A stretch of 64,000 nucleotides of DNA from Eledone cirrhosa (Eukaryota). The notes below the pieces were generated by a model. That model was given only the letters and a program-made list of their open reading frames with translations, had not been told where the DNA came from and ran no database searches. Shown here piece by piece: positions 1 to 59,814 of this stretch. The stretch covers positions 140,120,001 to 140,184,000 of the forward strand of contig OZ024741.1 of the NCBI GenBank assembly GCA_964016885.1. The letters are read 5' to 3'. Within the stretch, counting starts at the first letter, position 1. Every line of letters starts with the position of its first letter. Both the position numbers and the translations under genes were made by a program.

Positions 1-1958
1 AACTGGTTACTTTTCACAAAGTAATCAACTCTGTAAATGAAAATGAAGGCAGAATGTTCTGCTTGAATGCAAATGCAGGTACAAGAAAGACCTATGTCAA
101 ATAACCTATTGGATTACCTCCGATCTAAGGAAAAATTGCACTTACCACTGCCATATCTGGAATAGCAGCCACTTTGCTTCACAAAGGTAGAACTCTTCAT
201 TCCAAATGCAAGATTCCTCTCAATGTAACTCAGGTAAACCTATGCAGCAAGCTGACCTGCTATTCATTGATGAGATAATTATGGAACATAAGCATATCTT
301 TGAATGCCTTGACAGGAGCTTCAAAGATGTTCGAGATTGCAAAAAGCCATTTGGTGGTCTAACAGTATTACTATATGGTGACTGGAAGCAAATTCTTCCA
401 GTTATACGTCATGGTGCTAGACCACAAATAGTTGAGGCAACCATCAAGAGATCCTATCTCTGGGACTATGTGGAAACCATGGAGATGACAACCAATCAAC
501 GGTTAATTAATAGAGGATTCTGATGAAAGACAGTTTGCAAACTACCTTCTTGGTGTGGGAAATGGTAACATTCCAACTGTTCCAACTGTAGGTGCATTCA
601 CAATTCTTCTGCCAAATGAACTTTGTCTGGAATATGGCAATGTGTCTGGACTGTGTGATTTTGTGTATACAAATCTTCCAGGAAACTACACACACCCACT
701 ATGGCTTGCAAATAGAGCCATTATCACTCCAACAAATGATGCAGCAAGATTGGTGAATGAGTTCATGGTCAACAAGTTCCCTAGTCATGAAATAATCTAC
801 AGAAGCTCTGATACAGTAGATAATTGTTTCTACTGTTTGGCACAAGGCCAGCAATTACCCAGTGCATTACTGGTACTTTATTTTATCGACCCCGTAAGGA
901 TGAAAGGCAAAGTTAACCTCAGCGGGATTTGAATTCAGAATGACAAGGGCCGTAACTCTATGCGTCAAAGCATGGCGTCCGGCCATCTACCGATACTGCC
1001 AATCCAGTAGATAATGAACTGCAATATCCAATTGAGTTCATCAACAAACTTACCCCATCAGGTTTCCCACATACTTAAACTGAAGCAAAGCAGTTGCATC
1101 ATACTTCTGAGAAATCTGGATCCTCTAAACGAGCATTGCAATGGTACGCGCTACATTATCACCAGCTTACATAATCATGTAATTGAAGCTGAAGTGGGTC
1201 CCAATGCTGGAACAAGGTTGCTAATCCCAAGGATACCACATGTATCTCAAAAGCTTGAGTTCCCTTTTACCTTTACTCGCAAGCAATTTCCTCTCAAACC
1301 AACCTTTGCCATTACATGCAACAAGGCACAAGGGCAGACATTTGAAAAGATAGTTGTATATCTACCAACATAATTCTTTTCACATGGTCAGATGTATGTT
1401 GCATTATCACGAGTTACAGAAAAAAAAGAAATATATAAAAATATTAAATGAAAGGGGTGTTTGCTGACAACTGTGTCTACAAAGAAATTCTACAGTGATG
1501 TGAAACAGCTATCACTCTCTTTTAGTTGAAATGCATTTCAGTTTCTTTGTAACTGCTAGAAAAGGGACACTACAAAATCTTAAGAAGTATATATGTGAAT
1601 ACAGTAAAACAACAATATAGCGAAGGTCAACGCTTCATATTGGTAAATGTAATTCATTCATTCATACCAGCAGTATCTATGTTCAAATTCACTGCTTGAA
1701 GCTTCCCATCGACGTTCTCAAGATTCATGAACATTTTACGTCAACGGTTTCATCGCTTTTCCATCTCCGTTATTGGTTTTTTTTAATGTATCATGGATTA
1801 CTTTACTGATTACAGAAGTAAGTGTAACACAGTCTTTGTTCAGTTTATGTGCATATTGTCTATTTATGTATCATATCTATGGGCATATATATTTGCGTAT
1901 ATCAATATGCACACTATATACGCTAGCAGAAAACCTCCCGGGGCGGTTCTTCTGCTAG
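1..1958 (+). mobile_element. Helitron 3' part: degenerate PIF1-family helicase of RepHel (1-1498), 3' UTR, terminal hairpin and CTAG end
   Basis: Frameshifted helicase motifs: Walker A-like FCLNANAGTRKTY, SGIAATLL, LLFIDEI, KPFGGLTVLLYGDWKQILPV, LLRNL..CNGTR, RKQFP..FAITCNKAQGQT, FSHGQMYVALSRV, NCVYKEIL*. 3' end is CTAGCAGAA-AACC..GGTT-C-TTCTGCTAG (1923-1958) followed by T. Confidence 0.93.
825..1004 (-). mobile_element. tRNA-derived SINE inserted in the Helitron helicase
   Basis: A/B-box-like head and CTTTGCCTTTCATCCTTACGGGGTCGATAAAATAAAGTACCAG core on the minus strand. 11-bp TSD CAGTAGATAAT at 814-824 and 1005-1015. Removing it restores SSDTVDNELQYPIEFINKLTPSGFP. Confidence 0.93.
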
Positions 1959-3899: not shown

Positions 3900-4162
3900 A
3901 AAATAAAGACATACAGACACATACAAAAACCAAACTAATAAAACAAATCAGACATACACAGATAGAACAAACAACAACTAGTGACAAGTAAATAAACACA
4001 TAAATAAATAAATAAACACAAACACTCACAGATGTATCGCATTCGCAAACCAAGCACACAACACACAAAAACCAGATGGTGTAGGATAAAACAGAATGTC
4101 TAACGAAAGAGCTTTGAGAATATAAACAACCATCCGGTTATCGAACCAACCAACCAAACAAG
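3900..4162 (+). mobile_element. Solo 3' terminal/pLTR region of a Penelope-like element
   Basis: Reverse-complement homolog of 54948-55250, the 3' region of the GIY-YIG PLE. Ends in a (TA)n tract. The HHR core appears deleted in this copy. Confidence 0.7.
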
Positions 4163-4290
4163 ATATATATATATATATATATAGTAATAATAAATAATGT
4201 ATATATATATATATATGGTGTAGGATGATTAAAGCGTCCGTATACGGTAGGCCGTTTGAGCACTCGATGCTCTTATAGAGCAGTGTATAG

Positions 4291-17003: not shown

Positions 17004-19487
17004 CTAGTTTGTATTTAGCGAAGAATTTAGAAACCTGTGTTTGCAATTAGTTATCCTATCGTGCCGGGAATTTAGAAGGTCCTTTCCGGTCGCTATTTCA
17101 ATTACCCCCACCAAACATAGTTCACTATGTTTCCGGTATGGACAGGCGAATTTTAGCACGGACCATTGTAGTGTCTATTCAATATTAGCGCGTTTCCCAG
17201 ATTTCTTTCTCCCGGGTCGTAGATCTAGCTAAACTGGGTTTGTTAAATATGTGCGTGTGTACATACCGTCTCTTCTTGAAAATATTCGAAGTGGAACCCA
17301 CATATTTACATATTCCCAGTTTAAATTTTACCACTCATCGGTAAATGATGTTTTTGTACAAGCATTTACCCGAGAGAGGACAGTTGCTGGGATTTCTGCA
17401 GATGCAGTTTGTCCGTGTATAGTGAGTAGTTTCTTCCCTGGTTCCAGTGTTGGGGGTGTTATTCCGGGTATTTTGTTGTTGATCCGGATATACACGTAAA
17501 GTGGAAGATATGTTTGCGGGTGCATGTCTGCTCAGTGCTGGAGGCTGCGGATGTTGCTGAGGATTCATATTATGTCCGGGTTTCTGTTGGCTGTTGGCAT
17601 TGCCATACCTGCGGAGGCGTTTGTTATTCAATTTCATGATGAAATTGCGCAGGTTAGCTCTGGTGGAATAGAATAATCGGATCGTGTCCCTATTTAGTAT
17701 TGTATGGAATTTATGTGTCGGAGGAAAGTGTTCGTCTATAAGTTGAAGAAGATATAGGATAGCATAGTAGTTACAAGATCGTTGTGCGGGGGATTATACC
17801 ATAGGCATGATTTTGTGTGGAACCTCCTTAGTATTTTCTTATTAGAAGCCTCATTATTTGTCTCGCCACTTTGGGGATTTGAGCCGTTGGTATTTAAATT
17901 TGTAAATTTTGTGTGGTATGCTTGTGATGTTTTCCTATTAGGGTGGTTGTTTCTTCCCCTGCGTGGTGTATCTGGAAGAAATTTTAGTGGTTCATCATAA
18001 CCGGTCCTAAGTAGAGCAGCGCTGTAGTAGTTCGAGTGTGTGTTGAAAGAGGATTCAGAGACAGACAATCTAGAGATCCTAAGGAATACATTTTTAACAA
18101 TAGAGCTAGTGATAGGCCTAGGATGGTTAGAACCACGATTAACATAGTTTAAGTTATCATTAGATTTATGGAAGTGTAAAGGACGAGTGTTAAGTCACAT
18201 CTAAAACGTTGATGCGTTATGGTCAAACGATATTTTAAGGCCCATGCTTTGAAAGAAGGATCTAATAGCTTTCCTTCTTCTTTCCAATTGTTGACCATTG
18301 AAGTTTTTAACGAGTAGGAGAGCATCATCTTTACATATTCCTCCTTCGAGGTCAGGGAAGTATAGATGTAACATGTGCAAGAGATATGTTCCTACAAGGT
18401 CTGTAACTTGGGCCGAGTCACTTAAACCCATAGTTATATCGAAGTCATGTTATCCATACTTACGTGTCCAGTACTCATTGTCAAACATTAACATTCTGAG
18501 TTCAAATCCCGCCGAGGTTAACTTTGCCTTTCATTCTTACGCGGTGTCGATAAAATAAAATACCAGTAATGCACTGGGTAATTGCTGGCCTTGTGCCAAA
18601 AGTAGAAACAATTATGATCTAACGTCTCAAAATTAACATTTTATCGACTTCATTTTTAGATTATTTGAAATTGTGCATCGCAAATATAAGGGCCTTATTC
18701 TGAAGGACTTGAGGAATAGAATAATAATAGGCATCTATGTCAAATTGAATGAAATTATAAGGGGATTTATCATCTAAATTAGTGAACCAGGTGATTGCGT
18801 CTTCGGTATTCCCTAGACAGTCTGTTTTGTTTTTGTTGTTTTTTTAATGTTTTATTAGTACTCTATCTAGAATATGCTTACTTATGCGACCTATGTCAGA
18901 TTTAGAGGGGCACATTAGTCTAATAAAGGGGTTAGATTCAAAGTTTTCCTTGTGGTCGTACAAGTTAAAACTTGAAAGTCGGGGTACAAATGGTTCTGCT
19001 CTAGCTCAGCTACGCTTAAGCAATTGACTATCTTAAGGCCTTCCCTATTAATGTTATCAATAGTAGACTTATCCGTTTTCTATATTTTTATTCAGTTCCA
19101 TAGCTATCCATGTCTAGTGACTATATATTGCCTGTTTTACCAGCGCGGATGAGTATTCCTTCCGTTTTTGCTAGTTCATCCATAGTCACATTTAGGCTCC
19201 GTTGGAATTTGTTGTGGTATCGATGTGTTTTTAACTTGATATTAGTGACCATATCGAACAGACTGGTCTCAGAAGTCTCCAGAAATATGTTGCTAGGAGG
19301 GTATATGAAATAAAGCCGTAATTATCTTGATCACTGTTTTTCGAATTAATATTCGGGCTGTTCATTTTTTTTTCGAAGTAGAATACCGTCCACCGTACCC
19401 GACGGATGAATCGATTAGTTATAAGCATTAGATCTTATTGTAAGGATATGGTATATGTTTTAGAGAAATGCCAAGGTTGTTTTCCAT
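17004..19487 (-). pseudogene. Penelope-like element (Naiad-type) RT + GIY-YIG ORF, degenerate
   Basis: MENNLGISLKHIPYP, RFIRRVRW, MGLSDSAQVTDLVG, GGICKDDAL (YRDD-type site), WYNPP, CICRNPSNCPLSGKCLYKNIIY, LLNSRHDRITNCKH. Many stops; SINE inserted at 18492-18614. Confidence 0.88.
18492..18614 (+). mobile_element. 5'-truncated SINE inserted in the PLE RT
   Basis: GTTCAAATCCCGCCGAGG..CCTTGTGCCAAAAGTAGAAACAA. Confidence 0.88.
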
Positions 19488-26288: not shown

Positions 26289-27098
26289 TTGGCAGTATCG
26301 GTGGAGGGTCGGACGCCATGCTTTCCAGCATAGAGTTATGTCCCTTTACGGTCTGAGTTCAAACCCCGCCGAAGTTAACTTTGCCTTTCATCCTGACGGT
26401 GTAGATAAAATAAAGTACCAGTAATGCACAGGATTAATTGCTGGCCTTGTGCCAAAAGTAGAAACAATATTGCTATTGTCGTTGCCATTATTATAATTGT
26501 TTCTACTTTAGGCACAAGACCAGCAATTACTCAGTGTATTACTGGTACTTTATTTTATCGACCCCGTAAAGATGAAAGGCAAAGTTAACCTCGGCGGGAT
26601 TTGAACTCAGACCATAAAGGGCCGTAACTCTTTGTTGCAAAGCATGGCGTCCGACCCTCTACCGATACTGCCAAACCACCACCTTGCCATTATTATAATG
26701 ATATAGGGCGGTGAATTGGCAGTATCGGTAGAGGGTTGGACGCCATGCTTTGACGCATAGAGTTACGGCCCTTGCCATTCTGAGTTCAAATCCCGCCGAG
26801 GTTAACTTTGCCTTTCATCCTTATGGGGTCGATAAAATAAAGTACCAGTAATGTACTGGATAATTGCTGGCCTTGTGCCAAAAGTAGAAACAATTATTAT
26901 AATGATATAAGGGCGGTGGATTGGCAGTATTGGTAGAGGGTCAGACGCCATGCTTTGACGTATAGAGTTACGGCCCTTGCCATTCTGAGTTCAAATCCCG
27001 CCGAGGTTAACTTTGCCTTTCATCCTTACGGGGTCGATAAAATAAAGTACCAGAAATGCACTGGGTAATTGCTGGCCTTGTGCCAAAAGTAGAAACAA
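26289..27098. mobile_element. Cluster of four near-full SINEs: 26289-26467(+), 26498-26683(-), 26706-26893(+), 26911-27098(+)
   Basis: Each has A/B boxes, core and tail. TSD TTGCCATTATTATAAT at 26482-26497/26684-26699; ATTATTATAATGATATA at 26689, 26893 and 27098. Confidence 0.93.
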
Positions 27099-28852
27099 TT
27101 ATTATAATGATATAATATGACGTTCGCTACCCGAACAGATTAGGGAATAAAATCGCTTTTCCTACACACACACACACGCGCGCATCCCCCCCCCCCCTCA
27201 CACACAAACACACACTACACAAGAACAAATAAAAAGAAAATATATATATATATTCAAAATAAAGAAAATACATTTGTACACTCCGTTGCAGGCACACACA
27301 AACACACACACATAAAAAAATTCCTGAACTTTTGAATCTTGGAGATAACCACAAAGACAATATATTCAATAGTCATCTTCCTTGACTATTGAACAAATGA
27401 AAAACAGGCATGAATTGCTACTGTCCATATTCACTAAAACATAAAGATGAAAATTTTGGTAACAATTCAGAAATCTAATTAAAATTTAAATTCGAATATA
27501 TAGTCGCCGTAATGCATATACGTCTACTAATAATTGATAACTATAAATACAAGTGGAATAAATCGGGCAACGTACCATTGGAATCCATTTTATTTCTCCC
27601 CAACTATGAGTCTTTTACCAGATATATTCAACTATTATTTATAGTTAATAGCTGTTAGAGCATTCAAAATATATTTTAAAATTTAAAATGTCTCAATTGT
27701 TCTTAAGTCAACCAATCTAATGAACGGAATAGCTTGTCCATAAAATTATAGTGAAAATGTCTGGGTATTCAAAGATACATGTACCCTTAACATTAATCTC
27801 ACTGTGATATTATTTGGGACCTAATGATTGCGATGCAAACTTAACCATTTGACCATACTACGTCAACTATGTGAATGTACGACATAAATAGCATGCCTGG
27901 CGTATCGTTTGGCAGAGGTTATTCCTATTAGAACTGGCCTTCGACTAAATAAGAGTAATAACAAGAGAGATGTTGGTGTTGGTATAATAGTTGGTGTGGC
28001 CTCTTCCTTCATGTCTGGTTATATTTATTATTTCATGTCTGGTTACTATTTATTGTTTCGGTCTATACGTGTGGACATTTTTTACGTAACAATATAATTA
28101 ACTTTTAATGTATAGAAGTTAAAGAAGTTTTCTTAATGGTGACTGATGTTGAAATGTGGTTTATTGATCAATGTTGAATGACACAGAAGCAGACGAATGA
28201 ACTGAATTATGTCGACGTTAAAGAACCGAAGCTCTTTCAAATTTATTTGAGACAGATTGACACTCCATTATATACACACATTTATACACAATTGACGTAT
28301 GTACACAGACAAATTAACGAACAATTCTATGCGATGAAAAAGTCAACAGTCGACAGAAACACACCCAAAGATATTTATAGATATATATAAAGGTAGGGAG
28401 GAATGGGTCTCTGTCGGTTTAGACAATGTGAGAGCCAGCTGTCCGATGAAGGAAACAACCTGCTTATGAAATTAACCTTTAAGTGGCTGAATATTCCACA
28501 GACATGTGAACCGTTCATATAATTCTCAGTGGGATTCAGCATTACGCAGAATGTGATAAGATTGATCCATAGAATTACTGGTTAAGTCCATCAGCACGGG
28601 TCTCCAATGATTTTCTATCCACTCACTTTCACTCCCGAGGTACAGGTTGACGTGAGGTTTTCTAGATCAAACATACATACATCATGACACAAATACAGAT
28701 AGAGACACATATATACCCATTAACAGACATATACTGAAAAATACATTAAACGCATACATACATATAAGCAGGCATGCATGTATATAGATGCATACATACA
28801 CACAGATACACCCACACAAGCATACATACATGCATACCAACAACATACATAT

Positions 28853-31655: not shown

Positions 31656-31875
31656 TTAGTCCAGAAATAGCCGTCGAAACGGCTTGAGCTCTGCCGTCGG
31701 GGTCATATATTTTCCTATATATATATATATATATAACGAAGGAAATGTGGTAAGGAACAAGGTGGACCATAACGCACCAAAGTACTCAATACTTAGGGTA
31801 GTAGAGTGAGTAATAGGAACGAGTAGGACCCCGACGGCTGAGCTCAAGCCGTTTCGACGGCTAATTCTGGACTAA
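31656..31875. repeat. 49-bp inverted repeat carrying the 3' half of a hammerhead motif, interrupted by (TA)n
   Basis: Arms 31656-31704 and 31827-31875. Motif GAAAC-GGCT-TGAGCTC-AGCC-GTC-GGGGTC in the right arm read on the minus strand. Confidence 0.75.
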
Positions 31876-34933: not shown

Positions 34934-35080
34934 GGCGGCGAATTGCTAGAGACGTTAAGACATTGGATAGAATGCCTTACAATATTCGTCCCACCTCTTG
35001 GTGCGTTCTGAGTTCAAATCCCACCGTCGTCAACTCTGATTTTCATCCTTTCGAGATCAATAAAAAAGTACATGTCTAGT
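34933..35080 (+). mobile_element. Degenerate SINE
   Basis: GTTCAAATCCC B-box and TTTCATCCTTTCGAGATCAATAAA core. Confidence 0.7.
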
Positions 35081-35248
35081 ACTGGGCTCGTACTCGGCTG
35101 TAGAAAAAATCTCGTGTGTTCAGACCTAGAAAGAGTTGGGCTCCACCAGATTAGAATATGCGTTAGACACGCCGTATGACGGTGCCTCTACGACGCCACT
35201 AGGAGTTATGGGATCTTTATCTATTATGTATATATATATGTTATATAC

Positions 35249-35422: not shown

Positions 35423-35472
<50 letters not shown>

Positions 35473-35496
35473 CATGCACACATATATATATATGCA

Positions 35497-35758
35497 CGTA
35501 TCGGTTTACCGAACATTTATTATAATGCTCGGTTTGTTTGTTTGTAAACAAACAAACAGCCCGAATTACGCCGTACAGTGTTTAGGCAATCACGTCACCT
35601 TTTTGTTCAACACTGACACAGGAACGATGTACTAGTTTCAAGCTTATTAACTATCGTCAGCATCGTATACCTTCCTCCCAGATGGTTAATCGTCTGAATG
35701 TATATACTTTCCGTATGCATATTAACGGCTGAGCAGCCTAATTTGCATATAGAGTGAG

Positions 35759-35853
<95 letters not shown>

Positions 35854-36056
35854 CTGTGTGTGCATAAGGAAAGTATATACTTTCAGACGTTCAACCATCT
35901 GGCAGGAAGGTATACGATGCTGACGATAGCTAATAAGCTTAAAACTAGTACATCGTAGGTGACGTGGTTTCCTAAACACTGTACGGCATAATTTGGGCTG
36001 TTTGTTTACAAACGAATAAACCGAGCATTATAATAAATGTTCGGTAAACCGATACG
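35497..36056. repeat. Long inverted duplication of an HHR-bearing element with a (TA)n/(TG)n spacer
   Basis: Arms 35497-35719 and 35861-36056. The second HHR copy (35915-35955, +) has GAAA>AAAA and an adjacent deletion. Confidence 0.9.
35620..35676 (-). ncRNA. Type I hammerhead ribozyme with intact core
   Basis: Minus strand AGGAA-GGTATA-CGATG-CTGACGA-T-AGTT-AATA-AGCT-T-GAAAC-TA-GTA-CATCG-TTCCT. Palindromic stem III region ACTAGT; GUA cleavage triplet. Confidence 0.8.
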
Positions 36057-36148
36057 GGCATATATATATATATGTGTGCATGTATGTATATATATACATA
36101 CTACTGTACGTCTGTATAGATATATCTATGTACGTATACATACATACT

Positions 36149-36178
<30 letters not shown>

Positions 36179-36183
<5 letters not shown>

Positions 36184-36503
36184 CAGGAAAGAAAGTTTAC
36201 ATGGTTTGCTATACAAAAAAGTTTTTAATCACATAGCTTACATTTGTTTCACTGAACTGGTATGTCTAGAGATCGCTATCCGCTTAATTTTGCGTTACTC
36301 GATCGCCAATACAAAATTATAACCAGTCAGATCTTCGCATGCTCCGAAGATCTGACTGGTTATAATTCTGTATTGGCCATCGAGTAACGCAAAATTAAGC
36401 GGATAGCGATCTCTAGACATACCAGTTCAGTGAAACAAATGTAAGCTATGTGATTAAAAACTTTTTTGTATAGCAAACCATGTAAACCTTCTTTCCTGAT
36501 TTA
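36179..36503. repeat. ~160-bp-arm near-perfect palindrome with a 7-nt loop
   Basis: Arms 36179-36337 and 36345-36503, loop CATGCTC, few mismatches. Confidence 0.93.
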
Positions 36504-36670
36504 TTATTACTCCAAGTGTTTACAACATAGGAATTACAGCATACCCGCAGCATCACTATGAAAACGCCTTGTTGAGTCAAACAAAGCCAAGCGTTAATAT
36601 CATCCACTACTGGAATACCATAACTGGACTTCACCTAAGTGGACTGCATTTAACTATTATTTGTTAATCC

Positions 36671-39627: not shown

Positions 39628-40020
39628 GCAACGGAAAGAGAGGAAGAGGGGAAACATGTCCGTGATATCTGTCAACTTAAGTTCGATCAAATCATGGACG
39701 AGGAGAGACACAGACGCGTCCGAGCCATGTGAGATGTAAGCGAGAAGCTTTCCCCCTGTATCTCTCACCTTCATTTCACCCCCTCTGCCCGTCACTCTCT
39801 CTCTCTCTCTCTCAGCTGGCCTCTTCCTCACACTTTCACTCACCCACTCTCTGCTACTCTCCCTCTCTCACTTCCTCCCGTCTGAACTGTGTGAAATCCT
39901 TTTCTCGCTTACATCTCACATCGCTCGGACGCGTCTGTGTCTCTCCTCGTCCATGATTTGATCGAAATTAAGTTCACAGATATCAAGGACATTTTTCCTC
40001 TCTTCCTCTCTTTCCGTTGC
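39628..40020. repeat. ~119-bp inverted repeat with a CT-rich spacer (probable pLTR-like element extending to ~40200)
   Basis: Arms 39628-39746 and 39902-40020. Confidence 0.88.
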
Positions 40021-43024: not shown

Positions 43025-43084
<60 letters not shown>

Positions 43085-43087
<3 letters not shown>

Positions 43088-43226
43088 TTAATATAGAAAA
43101 GCTTCTACAGGTCTAGAACTGTTTCATTCGGGAGAAATCATCGGAAAAGCTGACTGTCCAAGTAATCTGATGATTTCTACCAAATGAAACAGTTCTAGTC
43201 CTGTAGAAGCTTTTCTATATTAAATA
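43085..43226. repeat. 61-bp inverted repeat between (TA)n tracts, with HHR-core remnants
   Basis: Arms 43085-43145 and 43166-43226; CTGATGA..GAAAC at 43167-43190. Confidence 0.85.
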
Positions 43227-43279
43227 TTTATACTCTGCTTTGTATTGAGTACCTTACTTACTGTGGTTACCCCCGATGA

Positions 43280-43340
<61 letters not shown>

Positions 43341-43345
<5 letters not shown>

Positions 43346-43767
43346 TGTATATATAGTGTATTTTGCAATACACTGTATGCTTAATTAAAAACATTTCGAA
43401 ACCTTGTTTTAGAGTAGTGACAGTCTCACTTACTTTAAATTTTCAGCAAACAAGGGAGATAAAGCTGACAGAGCTCTGTTTCGTACTGATTGGTACTTAT
43501 CAAAGCCAAGTACTCAACCTGTTTGCTGAAAATCATGAATGATTAATTCTTATAGAATTCTAGTAATAATCAGGAACTGATTATACAGAGCGGTTGCCGA
43601 TTGAAGCAGAAATTGAAAATTAGAATAAATGCTCTGAAATAGCGATATATATATATGAATGTATATATAGTGTATTTTGCTGAAAATTTAAAGTAAGTGA
43701 GACTGGCACTACTCTAAAACAATAGCGTAAGGTTTCTAAATGCTTTTAATTAAGCATACAGTGTATT
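43341..43767 (-). mobile_element. Retrozyme-like ~314-nt monomer (subfamily A) with restart and inverted segment; degenerate HHR at 43464-43506
   Basis: ATGAATGTATATATAGTGTATTTTGC recurs at 43341 and 43655. Minus-strand GCT-TTGATAA-GTAC-CAATCA-GTAC-GAAAC-AGAGCTCT-GTC-AGC. Confidence 0.75.
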
Positions 43768-44769: not shown

Positions 44770-45427
44770 GAATGAATGTATGCATACTATATTTGGCAAT
44801 ATACCGTATGTTTAAATTAAAAACATTTTGAAAACCTTACGCTATCATTTTAAAAGTAGTGACTATGTCACTTACTTCTTTTCGGCGATAGAAGGCAGAG
44901 AAGCTAACAGTCTGTTTCATGCTGTTTGGCAATCATCAGATCTACGTACTGATTTCTTCCGCCGAAAATTATAGAAGCTGGATTCTTATAGAATCTTTAA
45001 AAATGATAGCGTAAGGTCTTCAAAATGTTTTTAATTAAAAACATGCTGTATATTGCCAAATATACTATACATACATTGATGTATATATCGCTATTTCAGA
45101 GATCAATCCTAATACTTAATAGTTGCTGGACCGGCAATCACTCTGTATAATTAGCTCCTCATTATTACTGAAATTCTATAAGAATCGAGCTTCTATAATT
45201 TTTGGCGGAAGAGGCAGTACGTGGCTCTGATGATTGCCAAACAGTATGAAACAGACTGTTAGCTTCTCTGCGTTCTTTCGCCGAAAAGAAGTAAGTGACA
45301 TAGTCACTACTTTAAAAATGATAGCGTAAGGTCTTCTAAAGGATTTTAATTAAACATACGGTATCTTGCCAAATATACCATGCATACATTCATGTATACA
45401 TCGCTATTTCAGAGCACCAATCCTAAT
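44770..45427 (+). mobile_element. Retrozyme-like ~315-nt monomer (subfamily B): inverted arm 44770-44995 plus ~1.4 head-to-tail units
   Basis: TTTAAAAATGATAGCG at 44996 and 45311; TCGCTATTTCAGAG at 45088 and 45401; HHRs at 45214-45271 (+) and about 44895-44950 (-). Confidence 0.8.
45214..45271 (+). ncRNA. Extended type I hammerhead ribozyme
   Basis: GCAG-TAC-GTGGCT-CTGATGA-TTGC-CAAACA-GTAT-GAAAC-AGACT-GTT-AGC-TTCT-CTGC. Confidence 0.8.
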
Positions 45428-45433
45428 ATATAT

Positions 45434-47429: not shown

Positions 47430-48979
47430 AATGGGAACCTATGGCAAACAATAGGCTTCCATGTTATATACATGCCTGAGCTCAAAGAAGCCATCAAACA
47501 GCTCAAAGCCTCAAAAGCCTTTGGGCCGGATAATATACCTACCCTGATATGGAAGGATGAGCATTTCCACATGCTTTTGCTCAACTTATGTAACCATACT
47601 TTCGAGACCAATAAACCACCTAGCGTCTGGCATGCAGCTCAAATTATCCCCATGCCCAAAAAAGGAGATCTTTCTTTAGCCACCAACTATAGAGGAATTT
47701 CTCTCATGGCAATTGCTGCAAAAATATACAATAAGCTTCTTCTTAGCCGCTTAATCCCATTTCTTGAGCCAATCCTTCGTAACAACCAGAATGGATTTAG
47801 GAGAGGTAGATCAACACTTAGCCAGATTCTCTGCCTTCGCCGACTTATAGAGGAGTCCCAAAACCGCAATCTAGACCTTGCACTCATCTTTGTTGATTTT
47901 TCAAAAGCCTTCGACTCAGTTGACAGGTCGGGGATGTTTGAAATTCTACAACTCTATGGGATTCCTGATAAAATCATCGCGGCCATACGTGTAATGTATA
48001 CAGATACCAAATCAACTGTCCTGACCCCAGATGGGGAAACACCACCTTTCTCAATCCTCGCTGGAATTTTACAGGGCGATACCCTTGCTCCGTATCTATT
48101 TATCATTGTTGTGGATTATGTTTTGCGCATGTCTGTGGATAGGATTCAGGATAGGGGATACCAACTACAGCCTAGGACAAGTTCACGCTACCCAGCAAAA
48201 TACTTGACCGACACCGACTTTGCTGACGACATCGCATTGATCAGTCGGTCACTGGAAAATGCTGAGAGTATTTTGAAGTCATTAGAGCAAGCGTCCAACT
48301 GTGTTGGACTGTACCTCAACGAATCCAAGACTGAGTATGTGAACAGATGTGCAAACAGCCCAAACTACCCCATCAGAACCCTTAATGGTACCACCCTTAA
48401 GCAGGTGGAAGATTACAAGTATCTTGGCTTATATATCTCCTCCTCCAAAAACGATTTTCTAACCAGGAAGGGTATGGCATGGTCAGCGTGCAATGACATG
48501 CACGCCATATGGACATCTCAACTTACCAACAAGCTAAAACTGGAAATATTCCAAGCAACCATTAAGCCCATATTACTTTATGGATCCGAAACTTGGACAC
48601 TAACATCACAACTTGAGAGGAGATTGGATGGCACATATACCAGTCTCTCAATGAGAGTGCAAAACCTATCCTGGAAACGACATCCCACCTTGTCTAAAGT
48701 CTATGGCAAACTCCCTCGAGCCTCTGCCCTTCTAAAATCCCGGAGAGCTCAATTTGCTGGCCACTGTCACCGTGCCAGCAATGAAAGCATATCCGCTCTC
48801 TTGCTCTGGAACCCTGACTCCAGCCTGACTAGGAGTAGGAAGCTGTCATTCCCTGACGTTATCTCTAGGGATACGGGAATCAGTAGACAGGACCTGGGGG
48901 CAGCGATGGGTGATAGGGAATTCTGGGGCATGAGAGTGAGATCCATCATCTCGACAGTAGTCGACGAATGATGATGATT
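47430..48979 (+). mobile_element. 5'-truncated RTE-clade LINE
   Basis: Contains the uninterrupted RT ORF; ends in a (TGA)n tail. Confidence 0.92.
47472..48971 (+). CDS. RTE-type reverse transcriptase (endonuclease domain missing)
   Basis: 499-aa open frame: KAFGPDNIP, PKKGDL..NYRGISL, QNGFRRGRST, FVDFSKAFDS, GILQGDTLAP, DFADD, YKYLG, LLYGSETW. Confidence 0.9.
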   Translation: MPELKEAIKQLKASKAFGPDNIPTLIWKDEHFHMLLLNLCNHTFETNKPPSVWHAAQIIPMPKKGDLSLATNYRGISLMAIAAKIYNKLLLSRLIPFLEPILRNNQNGFRRGRSTLSQILCLRRLIEESQNRNLDLALIFVDFSKAFDSVDRSGMFEILQLYGIPDKIIAAIRVMYTDTKSTVLTPDGETPPFSILAGILQGDTLAPYLFIIVVDYVLRMSVDRIQDRGYQLQPRTSSRYPAKYLTDTDFADDIALISRSLENAESILKSLEQASNCVGLYLNESKTEYVNRCANSPNYPIRTLNGTTLKQVEDYKYLGLYISSSKNDFLTRKGMAWSACNDMHAIWTSQLTNKLKLEIFQATIKPILLYGSETWTLTSQLERRLDGTYTSLSMRVQNLSWKRHPTLSKVYGKLPRASALLKSRRAQFAGHCHRASNESISALLLWNPDSSLTRSRKLSFPDVISRDTGISRQDLGAAMGDREFWGMRVRSIISTVVDE

Positions 48980-53742: not shown

Positions 53743-53871
53743 TACACACACACGCACACACACACACACACACAAACACCCCCACCCCCCACCCACCCCA
53801 CACACACATACATATATATACAGTAAGTACGTTTTTGAAACAGCGAGCAAGTTTGAAATTAGAAAATAGAA

Positions 53872-54055
53872 GCTTTCACCGTATTTTTTTACTAAATAAA
53901 TTTTAGCCTGATAATGGGGTTGAGAACCCTCGGAGAAATGGAAAAAGATGAGTATTGACGTACATGTACGTCAATACTCATGTTTTTCCATTTCTCTGAG
54001 GGTTCTAAACCCCACTATGAGGCTAAAATGTCTTTACTAATAAAATACGGTGAAA

Positions 54056-54057
<2 letters not shown>
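53872..54057. repeat. Spacer-less ~93-bp-arm palindrome adjoining (TA)n
   Basis: Centre ATGAGTATTGACGTACA|TGTACGTCAATACTCAT; ends GCTTTCACCG / CGGTGAAAGC. Confidence 0.9.
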
Positions 54058-54126
<69 letters not shown>

Positions 54127-54947: not shown

Positions 54948-55729
54948 CTGGTTGGTTGGTTGGTTCCACAACCAGATAGTTGTTTATATATAGTCATAGA
55001 CCTTTCGTCACACACTCTGTGACCTCTTCAGTGACTGGGGATTCCTTTCTTTGTTTCTGTGCCTCTCCTTTGTTCTGTCCTACGCCATTTTGTTTCTGTG
55101 TGTGTGTTGTGTGCTCAGTCTGCGCATGCGCCACATCCGGGTGTCTGTGTGTGTCTATGTTCATTTATCTATTTGTTTATTTATTTATTTATTTACATGT
55201 TACTGGTTGGTTGTTTGTTCTATGTGTGTGTGTGTTTTCATTTTGTCCTTAATTGTAAGTTGTGATGTTGCTGTTCCACTCATATTTTCTATTTGATTTT
55301 GGTTGTAATTCTTTTATGTTTATTGCCTCTGTAATTTGTCTATACATGGCATCTTTTCTGTGTGTAGATTCTATTTTTATTTCTATGTTCTCTAATTTAC
55401 CCTTGTGTTCTATCTTAGCATGTTGGTAGAGTACAGATGATTCTTCATTATCTTGAAGGTCTCGCCAGTGTTCATTTATCCGTTCCCCTATACTACGAGC
55501 TGTCTCACCTATGTACACTATATGTTTGTATCTACATTGTCCTTCAGTAAATCTTATGCTATACACTACATTTCTAGTTTTACAGTTAATATGGGGGCTT
55601 ATTTTACAGGTTATACATTTCTTATCTATACATGAGGGTCTTTGAAAAGGGTATGTCTTGCTAATAAGACCACGTATCTCCGTAAAAACACTTATTAGCA
55701 AGACATACCCTTTTCAAAGACCCTCATGT
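54948..55729 (-). mobile_element. 5'-truncated Penelope-like element: GIY-YIG endonuclease (55249-55668), pLTR with HHR, 5' inversion
   Basis: CITC..NCKTRNVVYSI..YIGETARSIGERINEH..SVLYQH..EAINI. 39-bp perfect inverted repeat at 55630-55668/55691-55729. Confidence 0.9.
54992..55036 (-). ncRNA. Minimal type I hammerhead ribozyme of the PLE pLTR
   Basis: AGTCA-CTGAAGA-G-GTCAC-AGAGTGT-GTGAC-GAAA-G-GT-C-TA-TGACT. Confidence 0.78.
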
Positions 55730-55869
55730 CTACTGTGCAGACTTGAATGTGGTGTTTTTGATTAATATTCCCTCAACCAACAATATGCCTTATGAAGTTA
55801 AGAAAACATAACGATAACCCGAATGTTATAACAAAAGAGGATGCTGGGGATAAAAACTGCACTGGTTAT

Positions 55870-57230: not shown

Positions 57231-57277
<47 letters not shown>

Positions 57278-57344
57278 TAATTACACGTACACACATATAT
57301 GTATACAGACGTATAGTAGTATGTATATATACATACATGCACAC

Positions 57345-57375
<31 letters not shown>

Positions 57376-57731: not shown

Positions 57732-59814
57732 TTAAGTTGCAAAGTTTTTGAGCATGCAGTTCGGGCCGTGTTCAGTGAGTCTGTTCAGTAGCGGGCCCTT
57801 GGCGAATAATATTTCGTAGCTCTCTGAGATAAAAGGTCGCAGTACTTGTGTCCTCCGTTGTATGAGCGCGTTTCTGGAGTATTTTCCATTTAAGCGTGAA
57901 GGGGGTGTAATTCCTTTTGTGGTCCCAAACATAGGAGGCGAGTGTTGTCTGATTTGATTTGTCCGGTCTTCTGAAGGAGTGGGTATGGGCATACCACCGG
58001 GTCTTAAAGTTATTGGAAGTCATGCCGATGTAAGTCTTTTTGTTGTTGCAATCATCGGTGCCTGAGATGACATCGCATTCGTATACGATATCATTTGTCA
58101 GGCATTTGTTTTCAAGTGGGCAGGCTCCCTTATTTAGGCAATTACACAAGTCCCCAGTCCGGAGATTGGGTTCGGAGGTGGTTGGCTTATTTAAATATTT
58201 GAATTGTGATCGGCTATATTCCTAGCTAGGTTAGGTGTAGTGGAGCAGAAGAGTCTTATTGTGTTCTTATTAAAGATGTTGTAGTACCTATGTTGTATGG
58301 GGAAGTGTGTGTTCAGCAAAGTGAAGATCATCCTAGCTATAGGTATTGAGACCTCTCTGTTGAAGGAATGCTTGTACCAGCTAATCTACCTATGCTTATT
58401 CCTCCTATGCAGTCTTGCGGTGATTTCTAAGTATGTTATCTTTTCTTTTAATCCGTTGCGGGCGAGGGCGTCATTGTAGTAGGAGGTAGAGGCGTGAAAA
58501 GTATCTTCATTGGCAGAGAGGCCAGAGATTCTAATAGAGACGCGTTTTACTAATTTATCAGTGATGTTTTTGGGGTGGTTAGAATTAACATTAATATATA
58601 TAAGGGACTCATTAGGTTTGTGGTTCGGGTAATAGAAGGAAGTAACTAGGTCGAGAGTGACATCTAAAAAGTTGGCCCTAGTCATATTAGATTCTATAGT
58701 TATACTAATCCTCGTTTACGGAAGAACGAGCCTAAGTTTCTCAGAAACCCATCGGCAGTTCTGGGGTTAATCTTGTGAGGGGCGAAGAGGCCGTCGTCTC
58801 GATATAAACCTCCGGTTAGACCAGTAAAGACGTTCTTCAGGTGATGTAAAATGTACTGGCCCACAAGGTTGCTAATTTCAGCCGAGTCACTCGCTCCCAT
58901 GCTGACGTCAAATGGGGTCTGAGACTTCTTGTTGATCCAGTAAGATCCATCGTGGTATAGGAAATTATTACGGGCATGGAGGAAACATCTTGCTCAGCAT
59001 CAGTTATGGTGGTAAAATTCCTGGCCAAGGTAATTGCGTCCTTCAGGAGGGGCTCCGAGATAGAAGCATAGTAGTTTTCTATGTCGAGTTGCAGGAAGCG
59101 AGTGTGGCGTTTGTCGGGTAATTCTTGGAATCAAGATATTGCCTCAGATGTTCTGCTCCAGAGTGGGAGTGGTGAGGCAACCCGCAATGATGGTAGAACT
59201 CTATCTAGGATCTTCTTATTGATAGAGCCGATGTCCCAACGTGTGGTTGATAAGTCTGACTGATGGTTTGTTGAGGAAGTTTCCCTTATGGTCCTTCAGG
59301 GTAAAATGCGGGGTCTTTACCCTTAAAGGTTCGCTTCGGTTCGGTCATGTAATTTAAGGGACTTGGCGATTTCTTTTCCGGTCGCGTTTGTCTCAGTCAA
59401 TGCCATCTCTATTACCTTCTTGTAGGTGGTCGTGATGGCATTTTTTGCCAGCTTATTGTAGGTCTGTGGGTCTGCCTCATAAACGTTTTTGGTTTTATCG
59501 GCGGAGACATGAAGATTAGGTGATTTTTTTATATTCCACAATTCAGTATTTAAGTAGGCCTGGAATGGTGTGGTGGCTCTACGAAATTTGATATATTTGA
59601 TCATCTTGAAGAGGTCTTTTTCAAATGGTTCAAGTAGGCTGTTGGTGGGGGGTGCCTTATTCGTTTTGAAGCCGAACTTTTCATCATTGGTAGATGCTAC
59701 ATCAGGGTTGTTTAGGAAGAAGGCTCTCCATCAAATTCGCTTGATGAACTCGTCGGTACGTCTGATGTGTGTTTTTAGGTAAAGTTTCTTTGCAGGGACG
59801 GGGATGTTCTTCAT
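57732..59814 (-). pseudogene. Penelope-like element (Naiad-type), near full-length RT + GIY-YIG ORF with stops/frameshifts
   Basis: MKNIPVP..FIKRI*WRAFF, ADKTKNVY, MGASDSAEISNLVG, GGLYRDDGL, NFLDVTLDL, YINVNSNHP, CNCLNKGACPLENKC..IVY..YIGMTSNNFKTRW. Confidence 0.92.

Follow-up and report, generated by a model that had tools for sequence, protein, structure and literature searches.

Two partial copies of one hammerhead-bearing repeat, decayed to an equal degree, lie head to head at 35497-36056 of the window, as the whole analysed stretch of 64,000 nucleotides of Eledone cirrhosa DNA is called here (GCA_964016885.1, contig OZ024741.1). The repeat is probably a retrozyme of about 300 nt, and we regard the pair as the probable product of a single insertion of Penelope type (PLE) into a (TA)n array, with both copies predicted to be inactive.

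The left arm (35497-35760, minus strand, GC 0.39) is a 264-nt copy of the repeat, termed family 1, and the right arm (35861-36056, plus strand) is an inverted copy whose 3' end matches that of the left arm and whose 5' end is 41 nt shorter. The two 5' ends are parted by a microsatellite spacer of (TA)29 and (TG)22 (35761-35860), the flanks are (TA)n, and one arm carries an extra tail. Aligned with 35861-36056 over 196 nt, the reverse complement of 35497-35717 shows 13 substitutions and two indels, namely a 23-nt deletion in the right arm (left-arm equivalent 35601-35623) and a 4-nt indel inside a short repeat. The inverted hammerhead pair proposed in the sequence-only reading is thereby borne out and had been placed correctly, and the differences between the arms exclude a duplicated read. 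A microsatellite-like 3' tail common to both arms is found at 35455-35496 (minus strand; mirror at 36057-36100), and a 3' extension at 36089-36165 (plus strand) belongs to the right arm alone and has a lone second copy within a microsatellite at about 57250-57350 (minus strand); the tail boundary on the arms is blurred by simple repeats. Close to the 5' end of the right arm lies a perfect palindrome of 16 bp (35869-35884, plus strand), matched by the left arm at 15 of 16 positions. Two 3' hairpins of the family-1 unit are predicted at 35503-35560 (minus strand) from folding and alignments. No target-site duplication is visible at the locus, the flanks of which are simple repeats.

The left arm contains a type I hammerhead at 35620-35676 (minus strand), the core of which is full. 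Core positions C3-A9 lie at 35660-35654 (N7 = C), the 4-bp stem II at 35652-35649/35644-35641 with a private wobble at 35650, G12-A15.1 at 35639-35636 and the ACTAGT palindrome of the 2-bp stem III at 35636-35631, positions 15.2-16.2 and loop 3 being palindromic. Stem I is extended and bulged, with a proximal part (35665-35661/35629-35625), a 6-nt bulge (35671-35666) and a distal part (35676-35672/35624-35620), and cleavage is predicted from the sequence to follow the GUA site, between 35630 and 35629. The core segments CUGANGA, GAAA and UH occur in order, are closed by stem I and keep 11 of 11 invariant positions. The full core, the extended stem I with its GGTATA bulge, the GUA site and the ACTAGT palindrome had all been recognised at these places beforehand. 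Positions 10.1-11.1 form U·U rather than G-C in both arms, and likewise in hammerhead families 2 and 4. A structure descriptor matched the full core twice in the window (35660- and 55031-), and all 20 block-wise dinucleotide shuffles were free of matches. The second descriptor, made for the U·U class, gave five motifs when up to one core mismatch was allowed, against two in 20 shuffles. Both were devised after the motif was known, and the first tolerates a mismatched basal pair in stem II. The further full-core hammerheads of the window are 55031-, 44939- and 45227+. Hammerhead families of Rfam were absent among 138 matches and among 5 matches, and exact-pattern scans of metagenome contigs and of viral contigs gave no locus in either.

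Public contigs matching the left arm numbered 4,820, 5,296 and 5,056 in three runs from one sample and, in a fourth run, 84, all four runs coming from one study with at most two samples. With thousands of contigs per run, the arms belong to a high-copy repeat family. One segment common to both arms (35685-35694) is rare in these contigs, at about 0.4-1.3% of the neighbouring depth, and its presence in each arm points to one source RNA, with the reservation that contig depth does not equal copy number. A single contig (depth 7.85, in one of the four runs) joins 35760 to 35503 via 39 nt, which implies a head-to-tail unit of 297 nt; one contig has another opposite-strand junction (35698/35757). 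No tandem copy of family 1 was found in the window. The only open reading frames of at least 90 aa overlapping the arms are stop-to-stop frames spanning the microsatellite. The family-1 unit is probably about 300 nt long and non-coding, and the family is likely a non-LTR retrozyme, a non-autonomous Penelope-type element. The 11 core positions hold no common variant, against 19 polymorphic sites among the 264 of the arm; at P about 0.44 this absence is not significant and does not support purifying selection on the core at family level. Covariation between the stem I partners 35627 and 35663 (39% and 15% variant) was dropped as a claim, the variants being unphased.

Retrozymes are described as elements of 150-450 bp with a GC content below 45-50% (PMC7229834), and the metazoan non-LTR retrozymes share with family 1 the inferred non-coding unit of about 300 nt, GC below 45%, a type I hammerhead and high copy number (PMC7229834). 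Among the axolotl motifs, HHR_Amex1 has a weak palindromic helix III like that of family 1 and HHR_Amex2 a like U·U at helix II's base (PMC7229834), whereas here the two traits are combined in one motif. Other differences from the metazoan retrozymes are that the copies at this locus are inverted and shorter than the unit instead of forming a tandem array, and that they lack an Rfam match.

A second hammerhead family supports this classification. In family 2 (44772-45428) a partial tandem (core 45227+) directly adjoins an inverted copy (core 44939-); the period is about 315 nt, the site is GUU, positions 10.1-11.1 are U·U, and there is no open reading frame. Family 2 aligns collinearly with family 1 across about 190 nt, at a score of 40 that none of 500 shuffles reached, and its structure is a cleaner PLE-type one than the pair at 35497-36056. 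An older relative of family 2 at 43333-43767 (about 74% identical, direct and inverted, cut by an N gap) has a degenerate core, and no homology between it and family 1 was detected (score reached by 237 of 500 shuffles). A further inverted hammerhead pair at 43079-43232 (cores 43144- and 43167+) lies between (TA)n arrays; both of its copies are damaged, and its hammerheads have U·U at 10.1-11.1, a 4-bp stem III and an 8-nt loop. Families 1 and 2 share an upstream block (TCACTCT..AATTAG; 35734-35757, minus strand), situated about 90 nt 5' of the core, with a score that none of 500 shuffles reached. The block is a possible internal promoter. It includes ATGCAAAT at 35741-35748 (minus strand), which we take to be an octamer-like motif. 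An snRNA-type promoter, of the sort reported for newt satellite 2 (PMC2220036), was set aside for family 1 as no more than a lead, the single octamer-like motif being without counterpart in family 2.

Two broken PLE open reading frames were identified in the window, at 57732-59730 and 17200-18500 (both minus strand), each with an RT, a Cys-rich linker and, at the C terminus, GIY-YIG; by this architecture they are presumably Neptune-like. The GIY-YIG of the relic at 59730-57732 (minus strand) gives a Pfam match only below the cut-off (E 0.003), a protein search with the endonuclease relic yielded 101 candidates and none at E <= 0.001, and the Atlas matches to the relic are eukaryotic clusters, one with GIY-YIG in 31% of its members. 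The descriptors found no hammerhead core downstream of either frame. A PLE-type hammerhead is present at 54992-55036 (minus strand; 55031- in the scans), some 220 nt downstream of an ORF relic that resembles GIY-YIG (55713-55249). Its core is full, an extra G follows A9, the pair G10.1-C11.1 is present, the 5 bp of stem II are unbroken and stem III is wobble-palindromic. The tail of the right arm has an 86% match at 57331-57274 (score 147; next best in the window 110), about 400 nt downstream of the PLE relic and on the same strand. A common 3' end, or else a truncated insertion of tiny size, may explain why the tail recurs.

These relics bear on an unlikely alternative, in which an autonomous PLE with an ORF gave rise to the arms as its 3' ends (pLTRs), truncated at 5', and which would leave mechanism and inactivity unchanged. 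The geometry of the pair matches that of PLE pLTRs (PMC3846280, PMC8557442), and both the tail match downstream of the PLE relic and the canonical hammerhead 55031- near its GIY-YIG-like relic agree with such an origin. The hammerheads of PLE pLTRs also share with family 1 the type I topology, the small palindromic helix III and the expected need for a dimer (PMC4209133), as the earlier description of a short palindromic stem III of PLE type had held. However, PLE min-HHRs have G10.1-C11.1, an extra nucleotide after A9 and a helix II of 6-8 bp (PMC4209133), whereas the left hammerhead lacks the first two, has a helix II of 4 bp and is without a linked open reading frame. At the contig junction the 3' end of the unit runs straight into its own 5' block, without an intervening ORF, and the homologous family 2 completes a period of about 315 nt within the window. 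The 3' region of the PLE relic does not match the arm body. No linked RT and GIY-YIG frame adjoins the arms, and an autonomous PLE sharing the arm body was not found in the window, the tail alone being matched near the PLE relic.

On the preferred reading of a retrozyme moved by PLE proteins, the source loci would be tandem arrays of family-1 units, the multimeric RNA of which would self-cleave through a double-hammerhead fold, the ACTAGT palindromes of two units forming stem III. The cleaved monomers would become circles, and a PLE RT/GIY-YIG protein would copy these at TA-rich nicks, leaving one copy and an inverted, 5'-shortened copy. The head-to-head arrangement is the commonest form of rotifer Penelope insertions, in which inverted pLTRs are about 37 nt shorter than direct ones, an optional tail of about 31 nt occurs and palindromes lie at the 5' end (PMC3846280). 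PLEs generally show an inverted 5'-truncated copy, a tail and a bias towards microsatellites (PMC8557442), and hammerhead pairs on opposite strands, 100-700 bp apart, have been known since 2014 (PMC4209133). Given these PLE structures and opposite-strand pairs, the inverted pair conforms to a known insertion pattern. With the insertions of Penelope, Neptune and Naiad it shares the head-to-head inverted copy, the tail on one arm and the microsatellite target (PMC3846280, PMC8557442), as well as a palindrome near the 5' end and the lack of a discernible target-site duplication; the shortening of the inverted copy is 41 nt here and 37 bp in Pen2a_Av (PMC3846280). In contrast to those insertions, the inserted unit here has no open reading frame and a 100-nt microsatellite stands at the junction (35761-35860), whereas the junction of rotifer Penelopes is a clean palindrome.

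This junction microsatellite could be target DNA, the result of slippage or a sign of two events. That the pair stems from two independent insertions into one microsatellite, or from a later fold-back duplication, is improbable. The family is abundant and has copies in (TA)n, the microsatellite does part the 5' ends, and many other fold-back structures are present in the window; but both arms have the same rare segment, the same 3' end and equal divergence, which argues for a common origin. The head-to-head layout moreover recurs. Four inverted hammerhead structures are found in the 64 kb, three besides the pair, and two of those three have no spacer; the structures at 43333-43767 and 43079-43232 lie beside (TA)n.

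As to the state of the arms after the proposed single insertion, the right arm retains a hammerhead remnant at 35904-35956 (plus strand; core at 35920), the core of which fails at G12. G12 is the catalytic general base of the hammerhead, and the right-arm copy is therefore very likely dead. The change from GAAA to AAAA and the adjacent deletion that had been noted for the plus-strand copy are found as G12>A at 35941 and as the 23-nt deletion, which takes out four of the five nucleotides of the distal stem I 3' strand. The left arm differs from the family majority by seven private substitutions, at sites where 83-99.8% of the contig depth disagrees with it and where the right arm has the majority letter in every case. 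The right arm's own differences are six substitutions, one of them a known minor allele, and the 23-nt deletion. Two of the left-arm private changes fall in the ribozyme, at 35650, where stem II now has U·G in place of C-G, and at 35677, where the outermost pair of stem I is lost. The stem II hairpin is computed at -0.1 kcal/mol in the left arm and at -2.5 kcal/mol in the right arm, where it has the family-majority form.

Each arm stands at about 3% from the family majority. At such decay, a core of 11 positions is expected to survive in 70% of cases, and damage to just one core out of two has a chance probability of about 0.42. The earlier contrast of one intact ribozyme with a disabled mirror is therefore upheld for the loss of the mirror but not as a meaningful asymmetry, since arms of equal decay need no explanation for it. 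We infer that both arms decayed neutrally after insertion and that one lost G12 by chance.

Folding of the 57-nt left hammerhead is no more stable than that of shuffled sequences (z = -0.09), and its pair probabilities are 0.72-0.88 for stem I and 0.32-0.43 for stem II, both of which can form. For the left arm transcribed alone they are 0.6-0.8 and 0.3-0.4, and a hammerhead-compatible monomer fold with an open core has P = 0.007. Stem III, with 2 bp and a 2-nt palindromic loop, falls short of a stable monomer stem III, and hammerheads with such short palindromic stems, known from PLEs and amphibian retrozymes, are expected to cut only as dimers (PMC4209133, PMC6765202, PMC7229834), in agreement with the dimer dependence assumed beforehand. 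With a stem III of only 2 bp, a same-strand hammerhead partner is needed; none was found in the window, and the mirror copy cannot take this role because it is antisense, on the opposite strand. A read-through transcript of both arms folds at -336 kcal/mol into a hairpin of about 200 bp, in which P = 0 for every hammerhead pair and the opposite arm pairs with the motif at P = 0.999. The models give no support to a double-hammerhead dimer of this copy, the designed dimer of two 57-mers (-18.6 kcal/mol) lying far above the cofold minimum (-29.5 kcal/mol). The models leave out tertiary contacts and Mg2+, so that they lower the odds of activity while still allowing it. The surviving left hammerhead is predicted from these models to be inactive at this locus.

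The intact core of the left arm, the upstream block kept there and missing from the right arm, and the stem I pairing in the arm transcribed alone could also be read as a left ribozyme kept by selection and active at the locus, with the disabled mirror as an antisense switch. We consider this very unlikely: stem II is weaker and the outer stem I pair lost through the private changes, a core at such decay is often intact by chance, the window holds no same-strand partner, and genomic retrozyme dimers were cut in one of nine tests (bioRxiv 10.64898/2026.07.22.740005). Nor does the motif keep the rank of best candidate in the window for an active ribozyme that it had been given, as 55031-, 44939- and 45227+ also have full cores, the first of them with a G10.1-C11.1 pair and a 5-bp stem II free of breaks, unlike 35620-35676, and the motif is predicted to pair with its antisense in a transcript of both arms. 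A MITE or fold-back DNA transposon with the hammerhead in long terminal inverted repeats, or an assembly artefact, might be thought of on account of the long inverted arms around a short spacer, and is scarcely credible beside a head-to-tail junction and a 5' truncation that fit retroposition and a homologous family 2 that makes a partial tandem.

Hammerheads of such build, retrozymes and inverted PLE insertions are each already known. A literature search, outside which most subscription papers fell, returned no cephalopod hammerheads and no inverted retrozyme insertions. Family 1 may already be present in Dfam or Repbase under another name. In the 2026 repeat annotation of Octopus vulgaris, the words 'ribozyme' and 'retrozyme' are absent from the text and one supplement (PMC13282606); as Rfam misses the motif and this annotation is silent on ribozymes, such families may be unannotated. 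In a 2026 preprint covering 31 vertebrates, three insects and one coral, retrozymes are argued to be non-autonomous PLE derivatives from co-occurrence and pLTR homology (bioRxiv 10.64898/2026.07.22.740005). The present window resembles those genomes in the co-occurrence with PLEs in one genome, the monomeric dispersed copies and the low rate of activity, which is predicted here. The available main text of the preprint has 'inverted' once, in a reference title, and neither 'cephalopod' nor 'octopus'.

The locus itself is of little weight, being a worn copy of a common repeat. What interest remains lies in the Penelope insertion signature that recurs on retrozymes, and it concerns the carrier enzyme of animal retrozymes, for which the arguments to date are co-occurrence and pLTR homology (PMC7229834; bioRxiv 10.64898/2026.07.22.740005). 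We put forward tentatively, as a possibility short of a probable one, that family 1 and its relatives represent an undescribed, abundant superfamily of retrozymes of about 300 nt with U10.1·U11.1, the insertions of which would routinely bear the Penelope signature (inverted copy head to head, tail, (TA)n target) and so provide direct structural evidence that PLE proteins mobilise retrozymes. Taken together with these points, and held jointly at the same tentative level, the superfamily would have a shared internal-promoter-like block, and each insertion would be silent from the outset through the antisense arm that it carries. As 64 kb hold four inverted hammerhead structures, a genome-wide count of the signature seems feasible and would identify PLEs as the carrier.

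The surrounding window is AT-rich animal DNA with many (TA)n arrays and with LINE and PLE relics. Adjoining the right arm, a near-perfect palindrome at 36178-36504 (160-bp arms, 98%, 7-nt loop) is without a hammerhead core and, at the threshold used, has no second of its kind in the window. Local inverted repeats also occur at 53866-54063, 39628-40020, 31656-31875 and 55627-55732, their arms measuring about 50-120 nt. A copy of a SINE-like dispersed repeat lies at 34935-35225, with nine other partial matches within the window, and copies at 26289-27115 are in tandem and inverted arrangements. A decayed relative of the hammerhead at 54992-55036 (minus strand) occurs at 4091-4170. Broken PIF1-like helicase frames at 191-1373 (plus strand) are probably, by their motifs, a Helitron relic. 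A LINE at 47430-48971 (plus strand) has a 513-codon open RT frame (Pfam RVT_1, E 9e-32).
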